This document shows positions 2,862 to 10,743 of a stretch of 23,152 nt of DNA, in pieces. Source of the stretch: a virus; the UHGV virus genome UHGV-0116223. One strand, written 5' to 3'. How positions within the stretch are numbered: position 1 is the first letter of the stretch; every line of letters starts with the position of its first letter. The notes under the pieces are model-generated. The model did no database searches. It was given only the letters and a program-made list of their open reading frames with translations, and was not told the DNA's origin. The position numbers were made by a program, and so were the translations under genes.

Positions 2862-2937
2862 GGCCCTTTAGCTCAGTGGTTAGAGCAGGCGACTCATAAT
2901 CGCTTGGTCGCTGGTTCAAGTCCAGCAAGGGCCACCA
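2862..2937 (+). tRNA. ileY: tRNA-Ile2 (anticodon CAU, lysidine-modified minor isoleucine tRNA), CCA encoded
   Basis: 76-nt cloverleaf: acceptor GGCCCTT/AAGGGCC, D-arm GCTC-AGTGGTTA-GAGC, anticodon loop CTCATAA (CAT at 2895-2897), T-arm GCTGG-TTCAAGT-CCAGC, 3' ACCA. Matches the E. coli ileX/ileY tRNA as I recall it; the acceptor stem variant is the ileY type. Confidence 0.92.
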
Positions 2938-3173: not shown

Positions 3174-3687
3174 GTAATTAACGATAAAGCCAGAGTATTA
3201 TCATTTATTATACCCCTTCATTTAATCAGGTTAATTACTCAAATCACTGAACTATTCTCTGTTCGCTCACTGATGATAAGTGAGTACCACAACCAATGTA
3301 TGTAGAACAATGCCGTAGAGTAAGGATGAAATGTCTCTGCCACGCCTTAAACATCTACTACTGACCAGAACACCCGCCGCAGGCAGATGAGTTTTGTGAG
3401 CGTTACAGGAGCGTGGCTATGCTCATTAACCAACGCTATTGAGATATAAATTTCTAACACTTGAAAAACGATTTTCACTAATAAATTATAACGGTTTTTT
3501 TTATCATACAGCGAAATAACCTTTTGTTTATTAAATTTAACATTCCTGTGCTAATTTAATTAAAAGTTCCATGCGTAGCAAGTGAAGCAGTTAATGTCAG
3601 TAATTGTCTCAAATGAGCGTTTTTTTATAGTGACAAACAGTAATAACATTAAAAATAGCCATGTAGACATTAATTGAGGAATAGACA

Positions 3688-4170
3688 ATGTTAGTTAGTA
3701 AAAGCAACGGATTTAACGCTAGCGCAGTTTTGGGTAGTGGAAGTTATAATGAAAATAAATCTTCTAAACACATGGAGCTACTAGCTCATAGTATTTTAAA
3801 ATTAATTTGTAAGGAAGCTGCATCAGAGACGTATCGCGGTGCTCTTGAAACTTTACAAAAAATGATGTCTGAATGTATATATCAAGAAGGCAACGCCTTT
3901 GTCATTATGGGAGCTGGAGAACAATTAAAACGTATTAAATATGAAGTTGGTGAAAATAACTTAAAGGTATTCAACGTACACTTTAATAATAATCACGAGT
4001 TAGTTAGTTCTGGTGAGCCTGACGTAATATGTTTAAGCAAGCAGGTCTGGGAAAATCTTCTCATTAAACTAAAGCTGGAAAACAATGAAAATGTGTTTTC
4101 TGAAACTAAAAAATTATCGAATAAAAATAATGCCGATCAGTTTTTTGAATGCGCTAAAAGAAATGAATAG
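3688..4170 (+). CDS. ypjC: hypothetical protein, low-GC island gene; N-terminal segment of a reading frame that continues through a TAG into 4270-5061
   Basis: ATG at 3688 preceded by GAGGAA RBS at 7-nt spacing; about 33% GC; ends at TAG 4168-4170. Gene symbol from recalled K-12 gene order. Confidence 0.6.
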   Translation: MLVSKSNGFNASAVLGSGSYNENKSSKHMELLAHSILKLICKEAASETYRGALETLQKMMSECIYQEGNAFVIMGAGEQLKRIKYEVGENNLKVFNVHFNNNHELVSSGEPDVICLSKQVWENLLIKLKLENNENVFSETKKLSNKNNADQFFECAKRNE

Positions 4171-4269
4171 AACCTTTTCGATAATATAAGAAAAAGTGAT
4201 TTTCATGTTGGTTTACTTAAGCCAAGTAGTACGCGTAGTGTTATTTTAGAAACGCCGCCAAATGTCTGT

Positions 4270-5061
4270 ATGGAATCACGTAATTCATATGAAAACAAAA
4301 TAGATGAGATTTCATCTTTGTCAGAGTCAAAGGAACACCCCATAGATATTCAAGAAAAAAAAGATGCGTTTGTGAATGAGTTCAAGGGGGTATTATTTGA
4401 TAAAAATACAAGGTCTTCAGAGCTTCTGTTTAATTTTTATGAGTGTTGCTATAAGTTTTTACCAAGAGCTCAGCCTCAAGATAAAATCGATAGCTATAAT
4501 TCAGCACTGCAAGCTTTTTCCATTTTTTGTTCATCTACGTTGACACATAATAATATAGGCTTTGATTTCAAATTATTTCCTGAAGTCAAGCTGTCTGGAG
4601 AACATCTTGAAACGGTATTCAAATACAAAAATGGCGATGATGTCCGGGAGATAGCCAAAATTAACATTACTCTCCAAAAAGAAGAGGGTGGTTTATATAA
4701 TTTACGTGGATTGGATTTTAAGGGGTGCTTCTTTTCTGGACAGAACTTCAGTAACTATGATATTCAATATGTGAACTGGGGAATGTCATTGTTTGATGTT
4801 GATACTCCGTGTATTTTTAATGCGCCTGCTTACAACAAGAGTAATGAAAAATCATTAAAACCTGTGAGCGAAAACGGTTTAAGTGGAGTATTGACTGATC
4901 GTAATAATAAAATAAAACTCATCACGGGCGTGGCACCATTCGATGATATTTTATTTATGGATGATGACTTTGATGATAGTTCCTCTGAGGATGATCCCGT
5001 TGAGAATAGTCCTGTTGTGACTAGTCCCGTTGTATCAAGTTCTAAAAGCAGTTTTCAATGA
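4270..5061 (+). CDS. ypjB: hypothetical protein (263 aa) with acidic Ser/Pro/Asp-rich C-terminal tail; same frame as 3688-4170 and lacks its own RBS
   Basis: ORF in the same phase as 3688 (offset 582 nt). The 99 nt between (4171-4269) are stop-free in frame. No Shine-Dalgarno before the ATG at 4270. Low GC. Confidence 0.6.
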   Translation: MESRNSYENKIDEISSLSESKEHPIDIQEKKDAFVNEFKGVLFDKNTRSSELLFNFYECCYKFLPRAQPQDKIDSYNSALQAFSIFCSSTLTHNNIGFDFKLFPEVKLSGEHLETVFKYKNGDDVREIAKINITLQKEEGGLYNLRGLDFKGCFFSGQNFSNYDIQYVNWGMSLFDVDTPCIFNAPAYNKSNEKSLKPVSENGLSGVLTDRNNKIKLITGVAPFDDILFMDDDFDDSSSEDDPVENSPVVTSPVVSSSKSSFQ

Positions 5062-5330
5062 TTAATAAATGGCAATTTTTACAAAGAGATAATAACGTAG
5101 ATTGAAACAATATGTATTATTGATTGAGTAAACGGGATTATTCTTCACACTACATCCATTTTAGTGTCACTACCAAAGAAAAAGGGGCTACGTTTTCATG
5201 TAACCCCTTGATTTATTTGGTGGGCTGGCAGTGACTGAATTGGTGCTGTAATTGGTTGAAATATTTCATCTAATGTCTGGTTCAACTTTCCTTAGCTGCC
5301 TGAAAGTTTTTTGATCTTACCCAGCAATAA

Positions 5331-5572: not shown

Positions 5573-5972
5573 AACAATGGGGGGACGAATGCTGTAAAAG
5601 TAAAACAATCTGCGATCTCAAAGTTATTGTGTGATTTTTATGTGAGCAGAAGATATTCATCAGAAACGATTATGTAAATCATTTTATTTTGCCAACGGCC
5701 TCATTGTCGAAAGAAAAAAATACGCCCGTATTTCCTGAATGGATTGACTTTTTTATCCAACCACACTTCAGCGCACTGCGTTTAAAAAATGCCTCATTCT
5801 TATGCGGAATATCATCATTTCATCATGATGTCTTTGATGAGCGGTGAACACAATACACTTGCGCTGTCTCTTCAGGATGAATCCCCTGGTCTGGTGCCTG
5901 TGGGCTGATGTTGCAGCAAAGCTAAGGTCGCTTAAACGCTACTCAGTATTCACTTTTCAGAGGATGAAATTT

Positions 5973-8900
5973 ATGAACAGGACCAGTCCCTATTATTGTC
6001 GCCGCTCAGTACTTTCCTTATTGATATCTGCCTTGATATATGCCCCGCCCGGGATGGCTGCCTTCACTACTAATGTTATTGGTGTGGTAAACGATGAGAC
6101 TGTAGATGGCAACCAAAAAGTGGATGAACGAGGTACAACAAATAACACTCATATTATCAACCATGGCCAGCAGAATGTTCATGGCGGGGTATCTAATGGA
6201 AGTCTTATTGAATCTGGTGGATATCAAGATATAGGAAGTCATAACAATTTTGTGGGGCAGGCTAATAATACAACCATTAACGGTGGCAGACAGTCAATTC
6301 ATGACGGGGGTATTTCCACAGGTACGACAATCGAGAGTGGCAATCAGGACGTTTATAAAGGGGGTATCAGCAATGGAACGACAATTAAGGGCGGTGCTTC
6401 ACGCGTAGAGGGAGGGAGTGCGAATGGAATACTCATTGATGGTGGTAGCCAGATAGTAAAAGTTCAAGGGCATGCTGATGGTACAACGATAAATAAGTCT
6501 GGCTCTCAGGACGTAGTACAAGGAAGTCTGGCAACGAACACAACCATAAATGGTGGTCGACAGTATGTTGAACAGAGCACAGTAGAAACAACAACCATTA
6601 AAAATGGCGGTGAGCAAAGAGTATATGAGAGCCGTGCGCTGGACACGACGATTGAAGGCGGAACTCAGTCTCTGAATAGTAAGTCAACGGCAAAAAATAC
6701 GCATATCTATTCTGGTGGCACGCAAATTGTTGATAACACCAGCACCTCGGATGTTATTGAAGTTTATTCTGGTGGCGTGCTTGATGTTAGTGGTGGTACG
6801 GCAACAAATGTTACCCAGCACGATGGTGCAATTTTAAAAACTAACACTAACGGTACGACGGTGAGCGGTACGAATAGTGAAGGTGCATTCTCCATCCACA
6901 ATCACGTGGCAGACAATGTGTTGCTGGAAAACGGTGGTCATTTAGACATAAACGCATATGGTTCGGCAAACAAGACGATTATTAAAGATAAAGGAACAAT
7001 GTCAGTTTTAACCAATGCTAAAGCTGATGCGACCCGAATAGATAATGGCGGGGTTATGGATGTTGCAGGAAACGCGACAAATACCATAATTAATGGTGGC
7101 ACACAGAATATTAATAATTATGGCATAGCCACAGGCACCAATATCAACAGCGGAACGCAAAATATCAAAAGCGGCGGGAAAGCTGACACAACAATTATAT
7201 CCTCCGGGAGCCGGCAGGTTGTTGAGAAAGATGGTACGGCAATTGGCAGCAATATTAGCGCCGGAGGCTCGCTGATTGTCTATACCGGCGGTATTGCACA
7301 TGGGGTTAACCAGGAGACGGGCAGTGCTTTAGTTGCCAACACGGGTGCAGGGACTGATATCGAAGGATACAACAAGCTCTCTCACTTCACTATTACCGGA
7401 GGGGAGGCTAATTATGTTGTGCTGGAAAATACCGGCGAACTGACGGTAGTGGCTAAAACCTCGGCGAAAAATACTACCATTGATACTGGCGGTAAGCTGA
7501 TTGTCCAGAAGGAGGCTAAAACAGATAGCACCAGACTTAATAATGGCGGCGTTCTGGAGGTTCAGGACGGTGGTGAGGCTAAGCATGTTGAGCAACAATC
7601 CGGCGGCGCATTAATTGCTTCCACGACCTCCGGAACACTTATCGAAGGAACCAACAGTTATGGTGATGCTTTCTACATCAGGAATTCAGAAGCTAAAAAT
7701 GTAGTGCTGGAAAACGCTGGCTCATTAACAGTCGTCACTGGTTCCCGCGCAGTTGACACGATTATTAATGCCAACGGCAAAATGGATGTTTATGGAAAAG
7801 ATGTTGGCACTGTACTCAATAGTGCTGGCACCCAAACAATATATGCCAGTGCCACTTCTGATAAAGCAAATATCAAAGGTGGCAAGCAAACGGTATATGG
7901 TTTAGCCACTGAAGCAAATATCGAAAGTGGTGAACAAATTGTTGATGGTGGGTCAACAGAGAAAACACACATCAATGGTGGCACGCAAACCGTTCAGAAT
8001 TATGGTAAGGCAATCAATACCGATATCGTCTCTGGCCTACAACAAATTATGGCAAACGGGACAGCGGAAGGTTCCATTATTAATGGGGGTTCACAGGTAG
8101 TTAATGAGGGCGGTCTGGCTGAAAACTCGGTGCTTAATGACGGCGGCACACTCGATGTGCGGGAGAAAGGCAGCGCAACGGGGATACAGCAGAGTAGCCA
8201 GGGCGCTTTGGTTGCAACCACCAGGGCGACGCGGGTCACAGGAACACGCGCGGATGGCGTCGCGTTCAGCATCGAGCAGGGTGCGGCGAACAATATCCTG
8301 CTGGCAAATGGCGGCGTGTTAACCGTGGAGTCAGACACCTCTTCTGACAAAACACAGGTCAATATGGGCGGACGGGAGATCGTCAAAACAAAAGCCACTG
8401 CGACAGGCACGACGCTCACCGGCGGTGAACAAATTGTCGAGGGTGTGGCGAATGAGACAACAATTAACGACGGCGGAATACAAACAGTTTCAGCTAACGG
8501 AGAGGCAATAAAAACAAAGATCAATGAAGGCGGTACGCTGACAGTCAACGATAATGGCAAAGCGACAGATATCGTCCAGAACAGCGGTGCCGCTCTCCAG
8601 ACGAGCACGGCTAACGGTATTGAAATCAGCGGTACTCACCAGTACGGTACTTTTTCCATTTCCGGCAATTTAGCGACCAATATGTTGCTGGAAAATGGCG
8701 GTAATTTATTGGTATTAGCAGGTACCGAAGCTCGCGACTCCACGGTTGGCAAGGGTGGGGCAATGCAAAACCTGGGTCAGGACTCCGCCACAAAGGTTAA
8801 CTCTGGCGGGCAATATACCCTTGGGCGGTCAAAAGATGAGTTTCAGGCTCTGGCCCGGGCAGAAGATCTCCAGGTCGCTGGCGGTACGGCAATCGTCTAC

Positions 8901-10553
8901 GCAGGTACGCTGGCGGATGCATCGGTCAGTGGCGCGACAGGAAGCCTGTCGTTAATGACGCCACGGGATAATGTTACGCCAGTTAAACTCGAAGGGGCGG
9001 TCCGGATTACCGATAGCGCGACATTGACTCTGGGAAATGGCGTCGATACCACGCTTGCCGACCTGACGGCTGCCAGCCGGGGCAGTGTCTGGCTTAACAG
9101 CAATAATTCCTGTGCAGGTACCAGCAACTGCGAATATAGAGTAAACAGTTTGCTACTCAACGACGGTGATGTTTATTTGTCAGCACAAACAGCAGCGCCT
9201 GCCACAACTAACGGTATCTACAATACGCTGACAACCAATGAACTTTCCGGTAGCGGTAATTTCTACCTGCATACCAACGTTGCAGGCTCCCGGGGCGATC
9301 AACTGGTCGTCAACAACAACGCCACTGGTAATTTTAAAATCTTTGTTCAGGATACCGGCGTCAGCCCACAGTCTGACGACGCGATGACGCTGGTGAAAAC
9401 AGGGGGAGGGGATGCTTCGTTTACGCTGGGCAATACCGGCGGTTTCGTTGATCTTGGGACCTATGAGTATGTCCTGAAAAGTGACGGCAACAGCAACTGG
9501 AACCTGACCAATGATGTCAAACCCAACCCGGACCCCATCCCAAATCCAAAGCCAGACCCAAAACCCGATCCAAAGCCAGACCCAAATCCAAAACCAGACC
9601 CTACTCCCGATCCAACGCCGACACCCGTTCCGGAGAAACGCATTACGCCTTCTACGGCAGCCGTACTCAATATGGCAGCAACATTACCGTTGGTATTTGA
9701 TGCTGAGCTAAACAGTATTCGCGAGCGGTTGAACATAATGAAAGCGAGTCCACACAACAATAATGTCTGGGGGGCGACGTATAACACCCGTAATAATGTC
9801 ACCACCGATGCGGGTGCCGGGTTTGAGCAGACGCTGACCGGAATGACAGTGGGGATCGACAGCCGTAATGATATTCCTGAAGGAATTACCACGCTAGGCG
9901 CTTTTATGGGCTATTCCCATTCACATATCGGTTTTGATCGCGGAGGACATGGCAGTGTGGGCAGTTATTCTCTGGGCGGCTATGCCAGTTGGGAACATGA
10001 AAGTGGTTTCTATCTGGACGGTGTCGTGAAGCTGAACCGTTTTAAAAGTAACGTAGCAGGTAAAATGAGCAGCGGTGGAGCCGCCAATGGCAGTTACCAC
10101 AGCAACGGGCTGGGCGGTCACATTGAAACCGGGATGCGATTTACCGATGGTAACTGGAACCTGACGCCGTATGCATCGTTAACGGGGTTCACCGCTGATA
10201 ACCCCGAATATCATTTATCCAATGGCATGAAATCGAAATCAGTCGATACCCGCAGTATATATCGTGAACTGGGCGCAACGCTGAGTTACAACATGCGTCT
10301 GGGGAACGGTATGGAAGTTGAGCCGTGGCTGAAGGCGGCTGTGCGCAAAGAATTTGTCGATGATAACCGGGTGAAAGTGAATAGTGACGGTAATTTCGTC
10401 AATTATTTGTCGGGCAGACGTGGAATATACCAGGCAGGTATTAAAGCCTCATTCAGCAGTACGTTAAGCGGGCATCTTGGGGTGGGGTATAGCCATAGTG
10501 CCGGTGTGGAATCCCCGTGGAACGCGGTAGCTGGTGTGAACTGGTCGTTCTGA
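5973..10553 (+). CDS. ypjA: AIDA-I-type autotransporter adhesin (1526 aa): extended signal peptide, beta-helical passenger, Pro-rich linker, C-terminal beta-barrel
   Basis: MKF-MNRTSPYYCRRSVLSLLISALIYA extended signal peptide (ATGs at 5964 and 5973, GAGG upstream). About 19-aa degenerate repeats (TTINGGxQxV...GG). PNPDPIPNPKPDPKPDP linker. C-terminal aromatic-rich barrel ending ...AGVNWSF. TGA at 10551-10553. Length 1526 aa from 5973 matches recalled K-12 ypjA. Confidence 0.9.
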   Translation: MNRTSPYYCRRSVLSLLISALIYAPPGMAAFTTNVIGVVNDETVDGNQKVDERGTTNNTHIINHGQQNVHGGVSNGSLIESGGYQDIGSHNNFVGQANNTTINGGRQSIHDGGISTGTTIESGNQDVYKGGISNGTTIKGGASRVEGGSANGILIDGGSQIVKVQGHADGTTINKSGSQDVVQGSLATNTTINGGRQYVEQSTVETTTIKNGGEQRVYESRALDTTIEGGTQSLNSKSTAKNTHIYSGGTQIVDNTSTSDVIEVYSGGVLDVSGGTATNVTQHDGAILKTNTNGTTVSGTNSEGAFSIHNHVADNVLLENGGHLDINAYGSANKTIIKDKGTMSVLTNAKADATRIDNGGVMDVAGNATNTIINGGTQNINNYGIATGTNINSGTQNIKSGGKADTTIISSGSRQVVEKDGTAIGSNISAGGSLIVYTGGIAHGVNQETGSALVANTGAGTDIEGYNKLSHFTITGGEANYVVLENTGELTVVAKTSAKNTTIDTGGKLIVQKEAKTDSTRLNNGGVLEVQDGGEAKHVEQQSGGALIASTTSGTLIEGTNSYGDAFYIRNSEAKNVVLENAGSLTVVTGSRAVDTIINANGKMDVYGKDVGTVLNSAGTQTIYASATSDKANIKGGKQTVYGLATEANIESGEQIVDGGSTEKTHINGGTQTVQNYGKAINTDIVSGLQQIMANGTAEGSIINGGSQVVNEGGLAENSVLNDGGTLDVREKGSATGIQQSSQGALVATTRATRVTGTRADGVAFSIEQGAANNILLANGGVLTVESDTSSDKTQVNMGGREIVKTKATATGTTLTGGEQIVEGVANETTINDGGIQTVSANGEAIKTKINEGGTLTVNDNGKATDIVQNSGAALQTSTANGIEISGTHQYGTFSISGNLATNMLLENGGNLLVLAGTEARDSTVGKGGAMQNLGQDSATKVNSGGQYTLGRSKDEFQALARAEDLQVAGGTAIVYAGTLADASVSGATGSLSLMTPRDNVTPVKLEGAVRITDSATLTLGNGVDTTLADLTAASRGSVWLNSNNSCAGTSNCEYRVNSLLLNDGDVYLSAQTAAPATTNGIYNTLTTNELSGSGNFYLHTNVAGSRGDQLVVNNNATGNFKIFVQDTGVSPQSDDAMTLVKTGGGDASFTLGNTGGFVDLGTYEYVLKSDGNSNWNLTNDVKPNPDPIPNPKPDPKPDPKPDPNPKPDPTPDPTPTPVPEKRITPSTAAVLNMAATLPLVFDAELNSIRERLNIMKASPHNNNVWGATYNTRNNVTTDAGAGFEQTLTGMTVGIDSRNDIPEGITTLGAFMGYSHSHIGFDRGGHGSVGSYSLGGYASWEHESGFYLDGVVKLNRFKSNVAGKMSSGGAANGSYHSNGLGGHIETGMRFTDGNWNLTPYASLTGFTADNPEYHLSNGMKSKSVDTRSIYRELGATLSYNMRLGNGMEVEPWLKAAVRKEFVDDNRVKVNSDGNFVNYLSGRRGIYQAGIKASFSSTLSGHLGVGYSHSAGVESPWNAVAGVNWSF
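9520..9630 (+). repeat. imperfect tandem 12/24-bp repeats encoding the (P-x-P-D/K) autotransporter linker
   Basis: ccaaagccagacccaaa occurs at 9546-9562 and 9570-9586, embedded in a run of cc(a/c)(a/g)a(c/t)cc(a/g)ga(c/t) units. Confidence 0.6.
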
Positions 10554-10702: not shown

Positions 10703-10743
10703 CCAATCATGATTGGCTGGCGGGAGTTGAACCCGTGTCCGAA
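10703..10743 (-). other. attachment-site remnant: 28-nt ssrA (tmRNA) 3'-end-like core next to a 14-bp palindrome
   Basis: Minus strand 10743-10716 reads TTCGGACACGGGTTCAACTCCCGCCAGC, matching the recalled ssrA 3' region TTCGGACGCGGGTTCAACTCCCGCCAGC with 1 mismatch; the terminal TCCACCA is absent. Adjacent perfect palindrome ccaatcatgattgg (10703-10716). GC content and gene content change at this point. Confidence 0.55.

Follow-up and report, generated by a model that had tools for sequence, protein, structure and literature searches.

The 23,152-nucleotide stretch catalogued as UHGV virus genome UHGV-0116223, which we analysed whole and call the window, is a K-12-like segment of the Escherichia coli chromosome, with only four transitions relative to NC_000913.3 in its first 5.7 kb. 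Two adjacent open reading frames (ORFs) in it, known in K-12 as ypjC and ypjB, are very probably the two parts of one ancestral gene, ypjCB, which lies on a low-GC island adjoining the tRNA gene ileY and became a pseudogene by nonsense mutation. A reading of the sequence without database searches (the original prediction) had proposed that a single amber codon divides what was one frame into these two ORFs. That observation was confirmed and the interpretation is supported, as other strains have intact alleles, encoding 449–492 amino acids, with glutamine at the position of the stop.

One frame interrupted by an amber codon

Translated on the + strand, positions 3688–5061 comprise 458 codons. 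Codon 161 (4168–4170) is a TAG, the only internal stop, and the frame ends in TGA at 5059–5061. The program-made ORF list divides this span into ORFs of 160 amino acids (3688–4170) and 263 amino acids (4270–5061), both opening with ATG. Translation bears out that they are offset by 582 nt and so share a frame, and that the 33 codons between them (4171–4269) contain no stop. The upstream ORF is preceded by GAGGAA, and the 20 nt before ATG 4270 (ACGCCGCCAAATGTCTGT) hold no Shine–Dalgarno-like purine run, both as the original prediction had described. Its claim of low GC content also stood: we measured 34.1% for 3688–5061, against its figure of about 33% and compared with 45.8% for the whole window. 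The C terminus that it had called acidic and rich in Ser, Pro and Asp is so by composition, as residues 417–457 contain 11 Asp and Glu against 1 Lys and Arg, have an isoelectric point (pI) of 4.05 and abound in the three residues named.

From composition alone, at 34.1% GC, we estimate a probability of roughly 0.03 for a same-frame pair joined by 33 codons free of stops. The one-gene reading is settled because full-length uninterrupted alleles align end to end over the TAG and the 33 codons that follow it.

The amber codon is derived

A search of 5.8 billion proteins returned many uninterrupted E. coli alleles, of 449, 457, 474 and 492 amino acids, named YpjCB or DUF5507. An intact coding sequence (CDS) is annotated in O157:H7, O145, cq9, CE0021a, GF3-3, PSJ-42, 005008, S1-ZIM-01-A, 23CRST026 and 1604D011. 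Glutamine stands opposite the amber position in all 11 aligned full-length proteins. The comparison with orthologues that the original prediction had suggested thus turned up full-length alleles. Of the 14 alleles without the amber, 12 have CAG as codon 161, O157:H7 has CAA and strain 1604D011 has AAG. TAG is accordingly the derived state, produced by a C>T nonsense transition. The ‘start’ of ypjB lies inside the ancestral protein as Met195, which does not vary among the full-length alleles sampled. A downstream half conserved as a stand-alone gene, which the original prediction had named as evidence against its reading, was found in no species or strain sampled, and TAG alleles gain frameshifts in that half.

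The change has the form of the classical ambers that are suppressible by supE (glnV44): it is CAG to TAG, and the glutamine supplied by supE would restore the wild-type sequence of YpjCB. Amber sites in lacI, studied by Coulondre and Miller, are reportedly an example of this class. Unlike such laboratory ambers, the ypjCB TAG is a natural polymorphism found in more than 1,200 genomes.

Family membership and existing annotation

The fused protein belongs to the NCBIfam family NF050179 (Ecoli_YpjCB, 465 positions), in which it scores 944.9 bits against a cut-off of 650; residues 1–449 match profile positions 1–465 of 465, with an X placed at codon 161. The window allele resembles other members in its full-length match and in its K-12 locus, flanked by ileY on one side and by the pinH remnant and ypjA on the other. 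It differs in being a TAG-interrupted pseudogene form, as the stop at 4168–4170 breaks the uninterrupted frame expected of a functional member, and in having Met instead of Thr at residue 366.

This last difference results from a T at position 4784 (+ strand), where NC_000913.3 and every K-12-like complete genome have C. Met366 also occurs in O157:H7 alleles; no complete genome of the collection combines T4784 with a K-12-like allele.

The Pfam families DUF5507 (364.2 bits, residues 1–160) and DUF5508 (616.5 bits, residues 195–457) both match above their gathering thresholds of 27 bits. Their boundaries are exactly those of the two K-12 halves, and both families co-occur in every full-length protein listed. 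In K-12 and other genomes, the Prokaryotic Genome Annotation Pipeline (PGAP) treats all 1374 nt as a single pseudogene under the label ‘YpjCB family protein / DUF5507 domain-containing protein, internal stop’; in the PGAP-annotated genomes compared, the gene sequence is identical to that of the window except at position 4784. That ypjC and ypjB are one split gene is thus already known from NCBI annotation resources, although not from the K-12 reference record or Pfam. In print, too, ypjC has been entered in a table as ‘Pseudogene’ (PMC5811629).

Distribution and further lesions

Complete E. coli genomes carry ypjCB in 3,078 of 5,426 cases (57%), always on the chromosome. The exact TAG-centred 61-mer is present in 1,236 of the 5,426 and its CAG version in 340, counts from probes that miss more divergent alleles. 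The K-12-like clade, taken as the genomes whose identity to the window gene is at least 99%, has 1,471 members, and the TAG is common to K-12, the enteroaggregative E. coli strain 55989 and a Shigella flexneri strain. A sequencing error or a laboratory artefact of K-12 is ruled out by the occurrence of the TAG in the 1,236 complete genomes, which come from many hosts.

Several TAG alleles have further lesions. Strains 55989 and TBU0218_10-1CC have lost one A from a run of eight (Table 1), the S. flexneri allele has lost 1 bp near 4386–4390 (the placement varies by aligner), 3′ of the TAG, and EC102 combines the TAG with a 4-bp loss at 3998–4001, upstream of it. Alleles that keep CAG have been inactivated independently: C4296 is lost in 19SZHZ803Rt, PSS-15 and E6474, 2 bp are lost at 4295–4296 in MEI7BO1-21, E110019 combines the loss of an AGTT unit with E154 GAA>TAA, and PSS-15 has the E154 ochre as well. 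Insertion sequences (IS1, IS3, IS5, IS903B and ISVsa5) interrupt ypjCB in several genomes. Together with the additional lesions of TAG alleles, these separate losses argue against programmed readthrough and against YpjB as a stand-alone protein.

Across the loci homologous to window positions 3400–5300, IS1A/B, the IS3 family, ISKpn26/IS5, IS903B and ISVsa5 occur in many genomes, and most of them split ypjCB. Identical frameshifts are found on different allelic backgrounds at slippage-prone sites: the (AGTT)x3 tandem, C4296 between two A4 runs (GAAAACAAAA) and the A8 run. This recurrence suggests either repeated mutation or the shuffling of lesions by recombination.

Among 60 genomes sampled at even steps through the identity ranking, 28 belong to the K-12-like clade, 7 have alleles of 96–98% identity and 23 have alleles of 88–93%. 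Allele length is not a multiple of three in six of the seven in the 96–98% group; all nine alleles opened in the 88–93% group are intact. As a rough estimate, about 40% of carriers appear to retain an intact ypjCB.

When prokaryotic species were scanned, each represented by one genome, the gene was found only in E. coli, S. flexneri and one obviously contaminated contig of a metagenome-assembled genome (MAG). This 2.8-kb contig (DEQI01000374.1, from the MAG ‘Planococcaceae bacterium UBA3370’) is 99.96% identical to the K-12-like locus, TAG included, and is almost certainly E. coli contamination of a Firmicutes bin. The matches among plasmid records include no true plasmid copy of ypjCB. One is a fragment of 120 amino acids (residues 168–287, 98% identity) at positions 128161–128520 of a 245-kb E. 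coli plasmid (NZ_MN732922.1); the other three are records of 4.8–4.9 Mb that are evidently mislabelled chromosomes, two of which hold alleles of only about 73% identity, more divergent than any allele analysed. The original prediction’s description of horizontally acquired cargo fits a gene with 34% GC that adjoins tRNA ileY and a recombinase remnant, occurs in only 57% of complete E. coli genomes and is absent outside E. coli and Shigella. Tellurite-resistance islands have been reported to integrate at the ileY gene, which separates ygaQ from ypjC (PMC8193136). In strain cq9, as in some others, a tyrosine integrase gene lies just 5′ of ypjCB.

Predicted translation and alternative readings

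On the pseudogene reading, codon 161 changed from CAG (Gln) to TAG in a common ancestor of the K-12-like allele clade, which includes K-12, 55989 and the S. flexneri strain. Ribosomes would initiate at ATG 3688 through the GAGGAA Shine–Dalgarno sequence, and release factor 1 would terminate at UAG161, so that an N-terminal fragment of 18 kDa (YpjC) is made. The 296 codons beyond the stop would stay essentially untranslated in suppressor-free cells, background misreading aside, with ATG 4270 serving only as an internal Met codon that has no ribosome-binding site. The untranslated RNA would presumably be open to Rho-dependent polarity, added to silencing by H-NS. The supE44/glnV44 suppressor inserts glutamine at UAG, and a following A favours suppression. 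Strains with this suppressor would restore the wild-type Gln161 and hence full-length YpjCB. The TAG allele is present in the genomes of C600 and TG1, which we take to be supE strains.

Published work on the locus concerns its expression and a deletion phenotype. A constitutive σ70 promoter and an H-NS site have been mapped between ileY and ypjC (Shimada 2014, PMC3946193). In mixed biofilms of commensal and pathogen, ypjC was induced about twofold (Da Re 2013, PMC3646849); the 18-kDa protein that this study assigns to ypjC is the truncated product.

Some points weigh against the pseudogene reading. The curated record NC_000913.3 keeps ypjC (b2650, ‘DUF5507 domain-containing protein’) and ypjB (b2649, ‘DUF5508 domain-containing protein’) as two protein-coding CDS with protein accessions. 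Termination at UAG161 and silence downstream of it are what we infer from the sequence. Deletion of ypjC in MG1655 F′ raised colonization by strain 55989 (PMC3646849), and given this phenotype the truncated ypjC or its transcript may not be inert.

The alternative that survives best, although we consider it unlikely, is that truncation was not neutral decay: the 160-amino-acid YpjC would be functional by itself, or the loss of YpjCB would have been adaptively selected. The TAG allele is very frequent and occurs in K-12, 55989 and Shigella alike, and the three TAG alleles from the window, 55989 and S. flexneri differ by one synonymous change in the 480 nt upstream of the TAG, compared with two frameshifts and one missense change downstream. 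These counts are tiny, however, and in other lineages the N-terminal part is itself hit, by the AGTT loss at 3998–4001 and by the E154 ochre; in EC102 the 4-bp deletion lies upstream of a TAG that is also present, so the fragment is not protected. Induction in biofilms and the MG1655 deletion phenotype suit a functional fragment, but constitutive expression of ypjC had no effect (PMC3646849). Repeated independent inactivation elsewhere could reflect selection for loss, although relaxed selection on an island gene silenced by H-NS would explain it equally well.

Two independent functional genes, with ypjB translated from ATG 4270, would agree with the two CDS of the reference record, with the separate Pfam families and with the stand-alone proteins of about 255–263 amino acids that gene callers report. 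This arrangement is largely refuted and hardly probable. The missing Shine–Dalgarno sequence and the internal position of Met195 in every full-length allele sampled both speak against it, the 33 codons taken as ‘intergenic’ are conserved as coding sequence, and the Pfam families are simply the K-12 halves, which always co-occur. Frameshifts also accumulate in the ypjB part of TAG alleles, and nowhere among the sampled genomes is the downstream half a conserved lone gene.

Programmed or regulated readthrough of UAG161 into short and long isoforms is the least credible reading: although in K-12 the frame stays open for 296 codons past the TAG, the next base is A and a near-cognate or supE tRNA-Gln would supply the native residue, the TAG is derived and limited to one allele clade (CAG, CAA or AAG in the other sampled clades), several TAG alleles lack an intact downstream frame, and K-12-like alleles share at least 99% identity, so that the mutation is recent and a frame still open behind it is to be expected.

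Properties of the intact protein

Eleven alleles were compared by the Nei–Gojobori method (mean synonymous divergence, dS, about 0.13). The ratio of nonsynonymous to synonymous divergence (dN/dS) is 0.71 overall, 0.45 in the domain at residues 228–420, 0.69 at residues 29–130 and about 1 both in the indel-rich linker (residues 131–227) and in the acidic tail. The alleles indicate that intact YpjCB is a genuine, weakly constrained and fast-evolving protein, because a frame of 1.35–1.48 kb has stayed open at 34% GC across this divergence and the C-terminal domain is constrained.

Ancestral YpjCB has about 457 amino acids, a mass of 51.6 kDa and a pI of 5.2, with a basic, Ser/Asn-rich N terminus and a strongly acidic tail. 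It is predicted to be a soluble, acidic accessory protein restricted to Escherichia. No signal peptide or transmembrane segment was detected in YpjCB (the highest 19-residue Kyte–Doolittle mean is 0.62). The membrane localization that the gene tables of two papers give for YpjB is not supported by the sequence, which has no hydrophobic segment.

Searches for a functional homologue found none. A phmmer search of 1.84 billion cluster representatives returned one full-length cluster, fragments of the family and one match that we rejected as spurious, a repeat-rich protein of 799 amino acids (E = 5.9e-4) that has a GCYYSDQNF-like motif in common with YpjCB. Sequence and profile searches found no relatives in the PDB, PADLOC matched no anti-phage defence family, and 50,697 phage records gave no tblastn match. 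The sole match in PHROGs is phrog_30093, a family of unknown function. AlphaFold2 models from the shallow family alignment reach predicted local distance difference test (pLDDT) scores of 36 (whole protein) and 53 (C-terminal domain alone). Foldseek returned no fold match in the PDB, with template-modelling (TM) scores of at most 0.20, which are uninformative.

Residues 338–356 or so (NLRGLDFKGCFFSGQNFSNYD) resemble about four pentapeptide repeats (PF00805, 12.5–13.5 bits, E = 0.055–0.11, over 19 residues), and the low-confidence model (pLDDT 53) has short strands every 5 residues in this stretch. We do not assign YpjCB to the pentapeptide-repeat family, whose members have several tandem A(D/N)LXX repeats that form a quadrilateral β-helix, as the score is below the gathering threshold of 20.2 and no fold match was found. 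As a lead only, the stretch would be compatible with a small β-helical module for interactions, of the sort present in certain secreted effectors and DNA mimics. Like PF00805 proteins, which include type III effectors such as PipB2, YpjCB has a repeat-like stretch and a Ser/Asn-rich N terminus. This N terminus has no acidic residue before position 22, and residues 1–28 are basic, with 39% Ser, Thr, Asn and Gln. The N-terminal composition alone suggests that YpjCB could be a type III effector; profile, PDB and cluster searches found no homology between YpjCB and any named family.

Layout of the locus

Gene order in the window is lhgO, glaH, ygaQ (a pseudogene on the minus strand), tRNA ileY, the ypjC/ypjB ORFs, a pinH recombinase remnant, the autotransporter adhesin gene ypjA and the end of the cryptic prophage CP4-57. 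The part encoding residues 195–457 includes the best-conserved domain (228–420) and the acidic tail (417–457).

Table 1 Features of the ypjCB locus and its neighbours (window coordinates)
Feature	Position	Strand	Remarks
ygaQ (b4462) pseudogene, alpha-amylase family	50–2302	−	Ambers at 1970–1972, 1265–1267 and 461–463, each TGG>TAG
tRNA ileY, tRNA-Ile(CAU), anticodon CAT	2862–2937	+	Known island integration site (context)
Putative promoter TTATCA-17-TTTAAT	3198–3226	+	Matches PMC3946193; spacer 17 counted, 18 printed
Shine–Dalgarno-like GAGGAA	3676–3681	+	6 nt 5′ of ATG 3688; direct reading
Codons 1–160 of ancestral ypjCB; K-12 ypjC (b2650), Pfam DUF5507 part	3688–4167	+	18.0 kDa
(AGTT)x3 tandem	3998–4009	+	One unit gone in E110019 and EC102; independent or secondary frameshift
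Premature amber TAG from CAG (Gln161)	4168–4170	+	C>T transition at 4168; following base A
33 sense codons, residues 162–194	4171–4269	+	No annotation in two-gene model; align with intact alleles
Codons 195–457 and TGA; K-12 ypjB (b2649), Pfam DUF5508 part	4270–5061	+	ATG is internal Met195
A8 slippage run	4355–4362	+	One A lost in TAG strains 55989 and TBU0218_10-1CC (secondary lesion)

The window differs from NC_000913.3 and K-12-like genomes at positions 367, 1583, 1718, 4784, 5718, 6791 and 8114, mostly by transitions. It also has 1-bp insertions relative to K-12, an extra T near 5954 and an extra C at 10717, and is not MG1655 itself. The ORF list places ypjA at 5844–10553 (1569 amino acids from GTG 5844); the annotated K-12 start corresponds to window position 5972 and gives 1526 amino acids. 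The extra T near 5954 is upstream of that annotated start.

Amber codons in the neighbouring ygaQ

Like ypjCB, ygaQ is low in GC, lies near ileY, is intact in some strains (S1-ZIM-01-A) and is inactivated in K-12 solely by ambers that arose through G:C>A:T transitions. It differs in encoding an unrelated protein on the opposite strand and in having three TGG>TAG ambers compared with one CAG>TAG, and two of the three are later and found only in the K-12-like sublineage. The K-12 ygaQ ambers are at W111, W346 and W614. That at W614 is common, with Q161 of ypjCB, to K-12, 55989 and S. flexneri; those at W111 and W346 are only K-12-like. In O157:H7, ygaQ has a single in-frame stop, Q413 CAG>TAG at a CCAGG Dcm site.

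The ORF pair and the amylase-like gene do share one stop type, as the original prediction had remarked, as all of these stops are TAG. Across the sampled lineages, five of the six nonsense codons in ypjCB and ygaQ are amber and the sixth is the E154 ochre of ypjCB. Simple mutation models on the codon content of intact alleles give the four K-12 ambers a probability of 0.004–0.025; a hand-calculated binomial gives five ambers of six a nominal p of about 0.01–0.03, which is post hoc and modest. The excess is real but only weakly beyond chance, and is an unexplained minor oddity.

Deamination of 5-methylcytosine at Dcm (CCWGG) sites was rejected as the source of the K-12 ambers, none of the four sites being in CCWGG. 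The ypjCB site (GAA CAG AAC) is no such hotspot, unlike the O157:H7 ygaQ Q413 site (GAC CAG GTT, CCAGG). On the + strand of the window, each of the four K-12 ambers is a C>T change. A single clustered, strand-specific C>T event was nevertheless rejected too: the ambers show a nested distribution over different lineages, and that of O157 lies on the opposite strand. We think it very unlikely that the excess reflects natural amber-suppressor tRNAs of the past or selection for leaky over tight stops. If it did, the amber alleles of ypjCB and ygaQ would have been partly functional while spreading, and the supE44 strains commonly used for cloning would again make full-length YpjCB of wild-type sequence.

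Implications

ypjCB is thus an ordinary orphan island-gene pseudogene, and the importance of the finding lies mostly in annotation hygiene: NC_000913.3 and Pfam split YpjC/DUF5507 from YpjB/DUF5508, and the biological unit is the single YpjCB protein, intact in O157:H7 and many other strains. Phenotypes ascribed to ‘ypjC’ or ‘ypjB’ in K-12 are those of a pseudogene, and supE strains may partially restore YpjCB. The locus offers a clean natural case of an orphan gene, restricted to one species and silenced by H-NS, that has decayed repeatedly.

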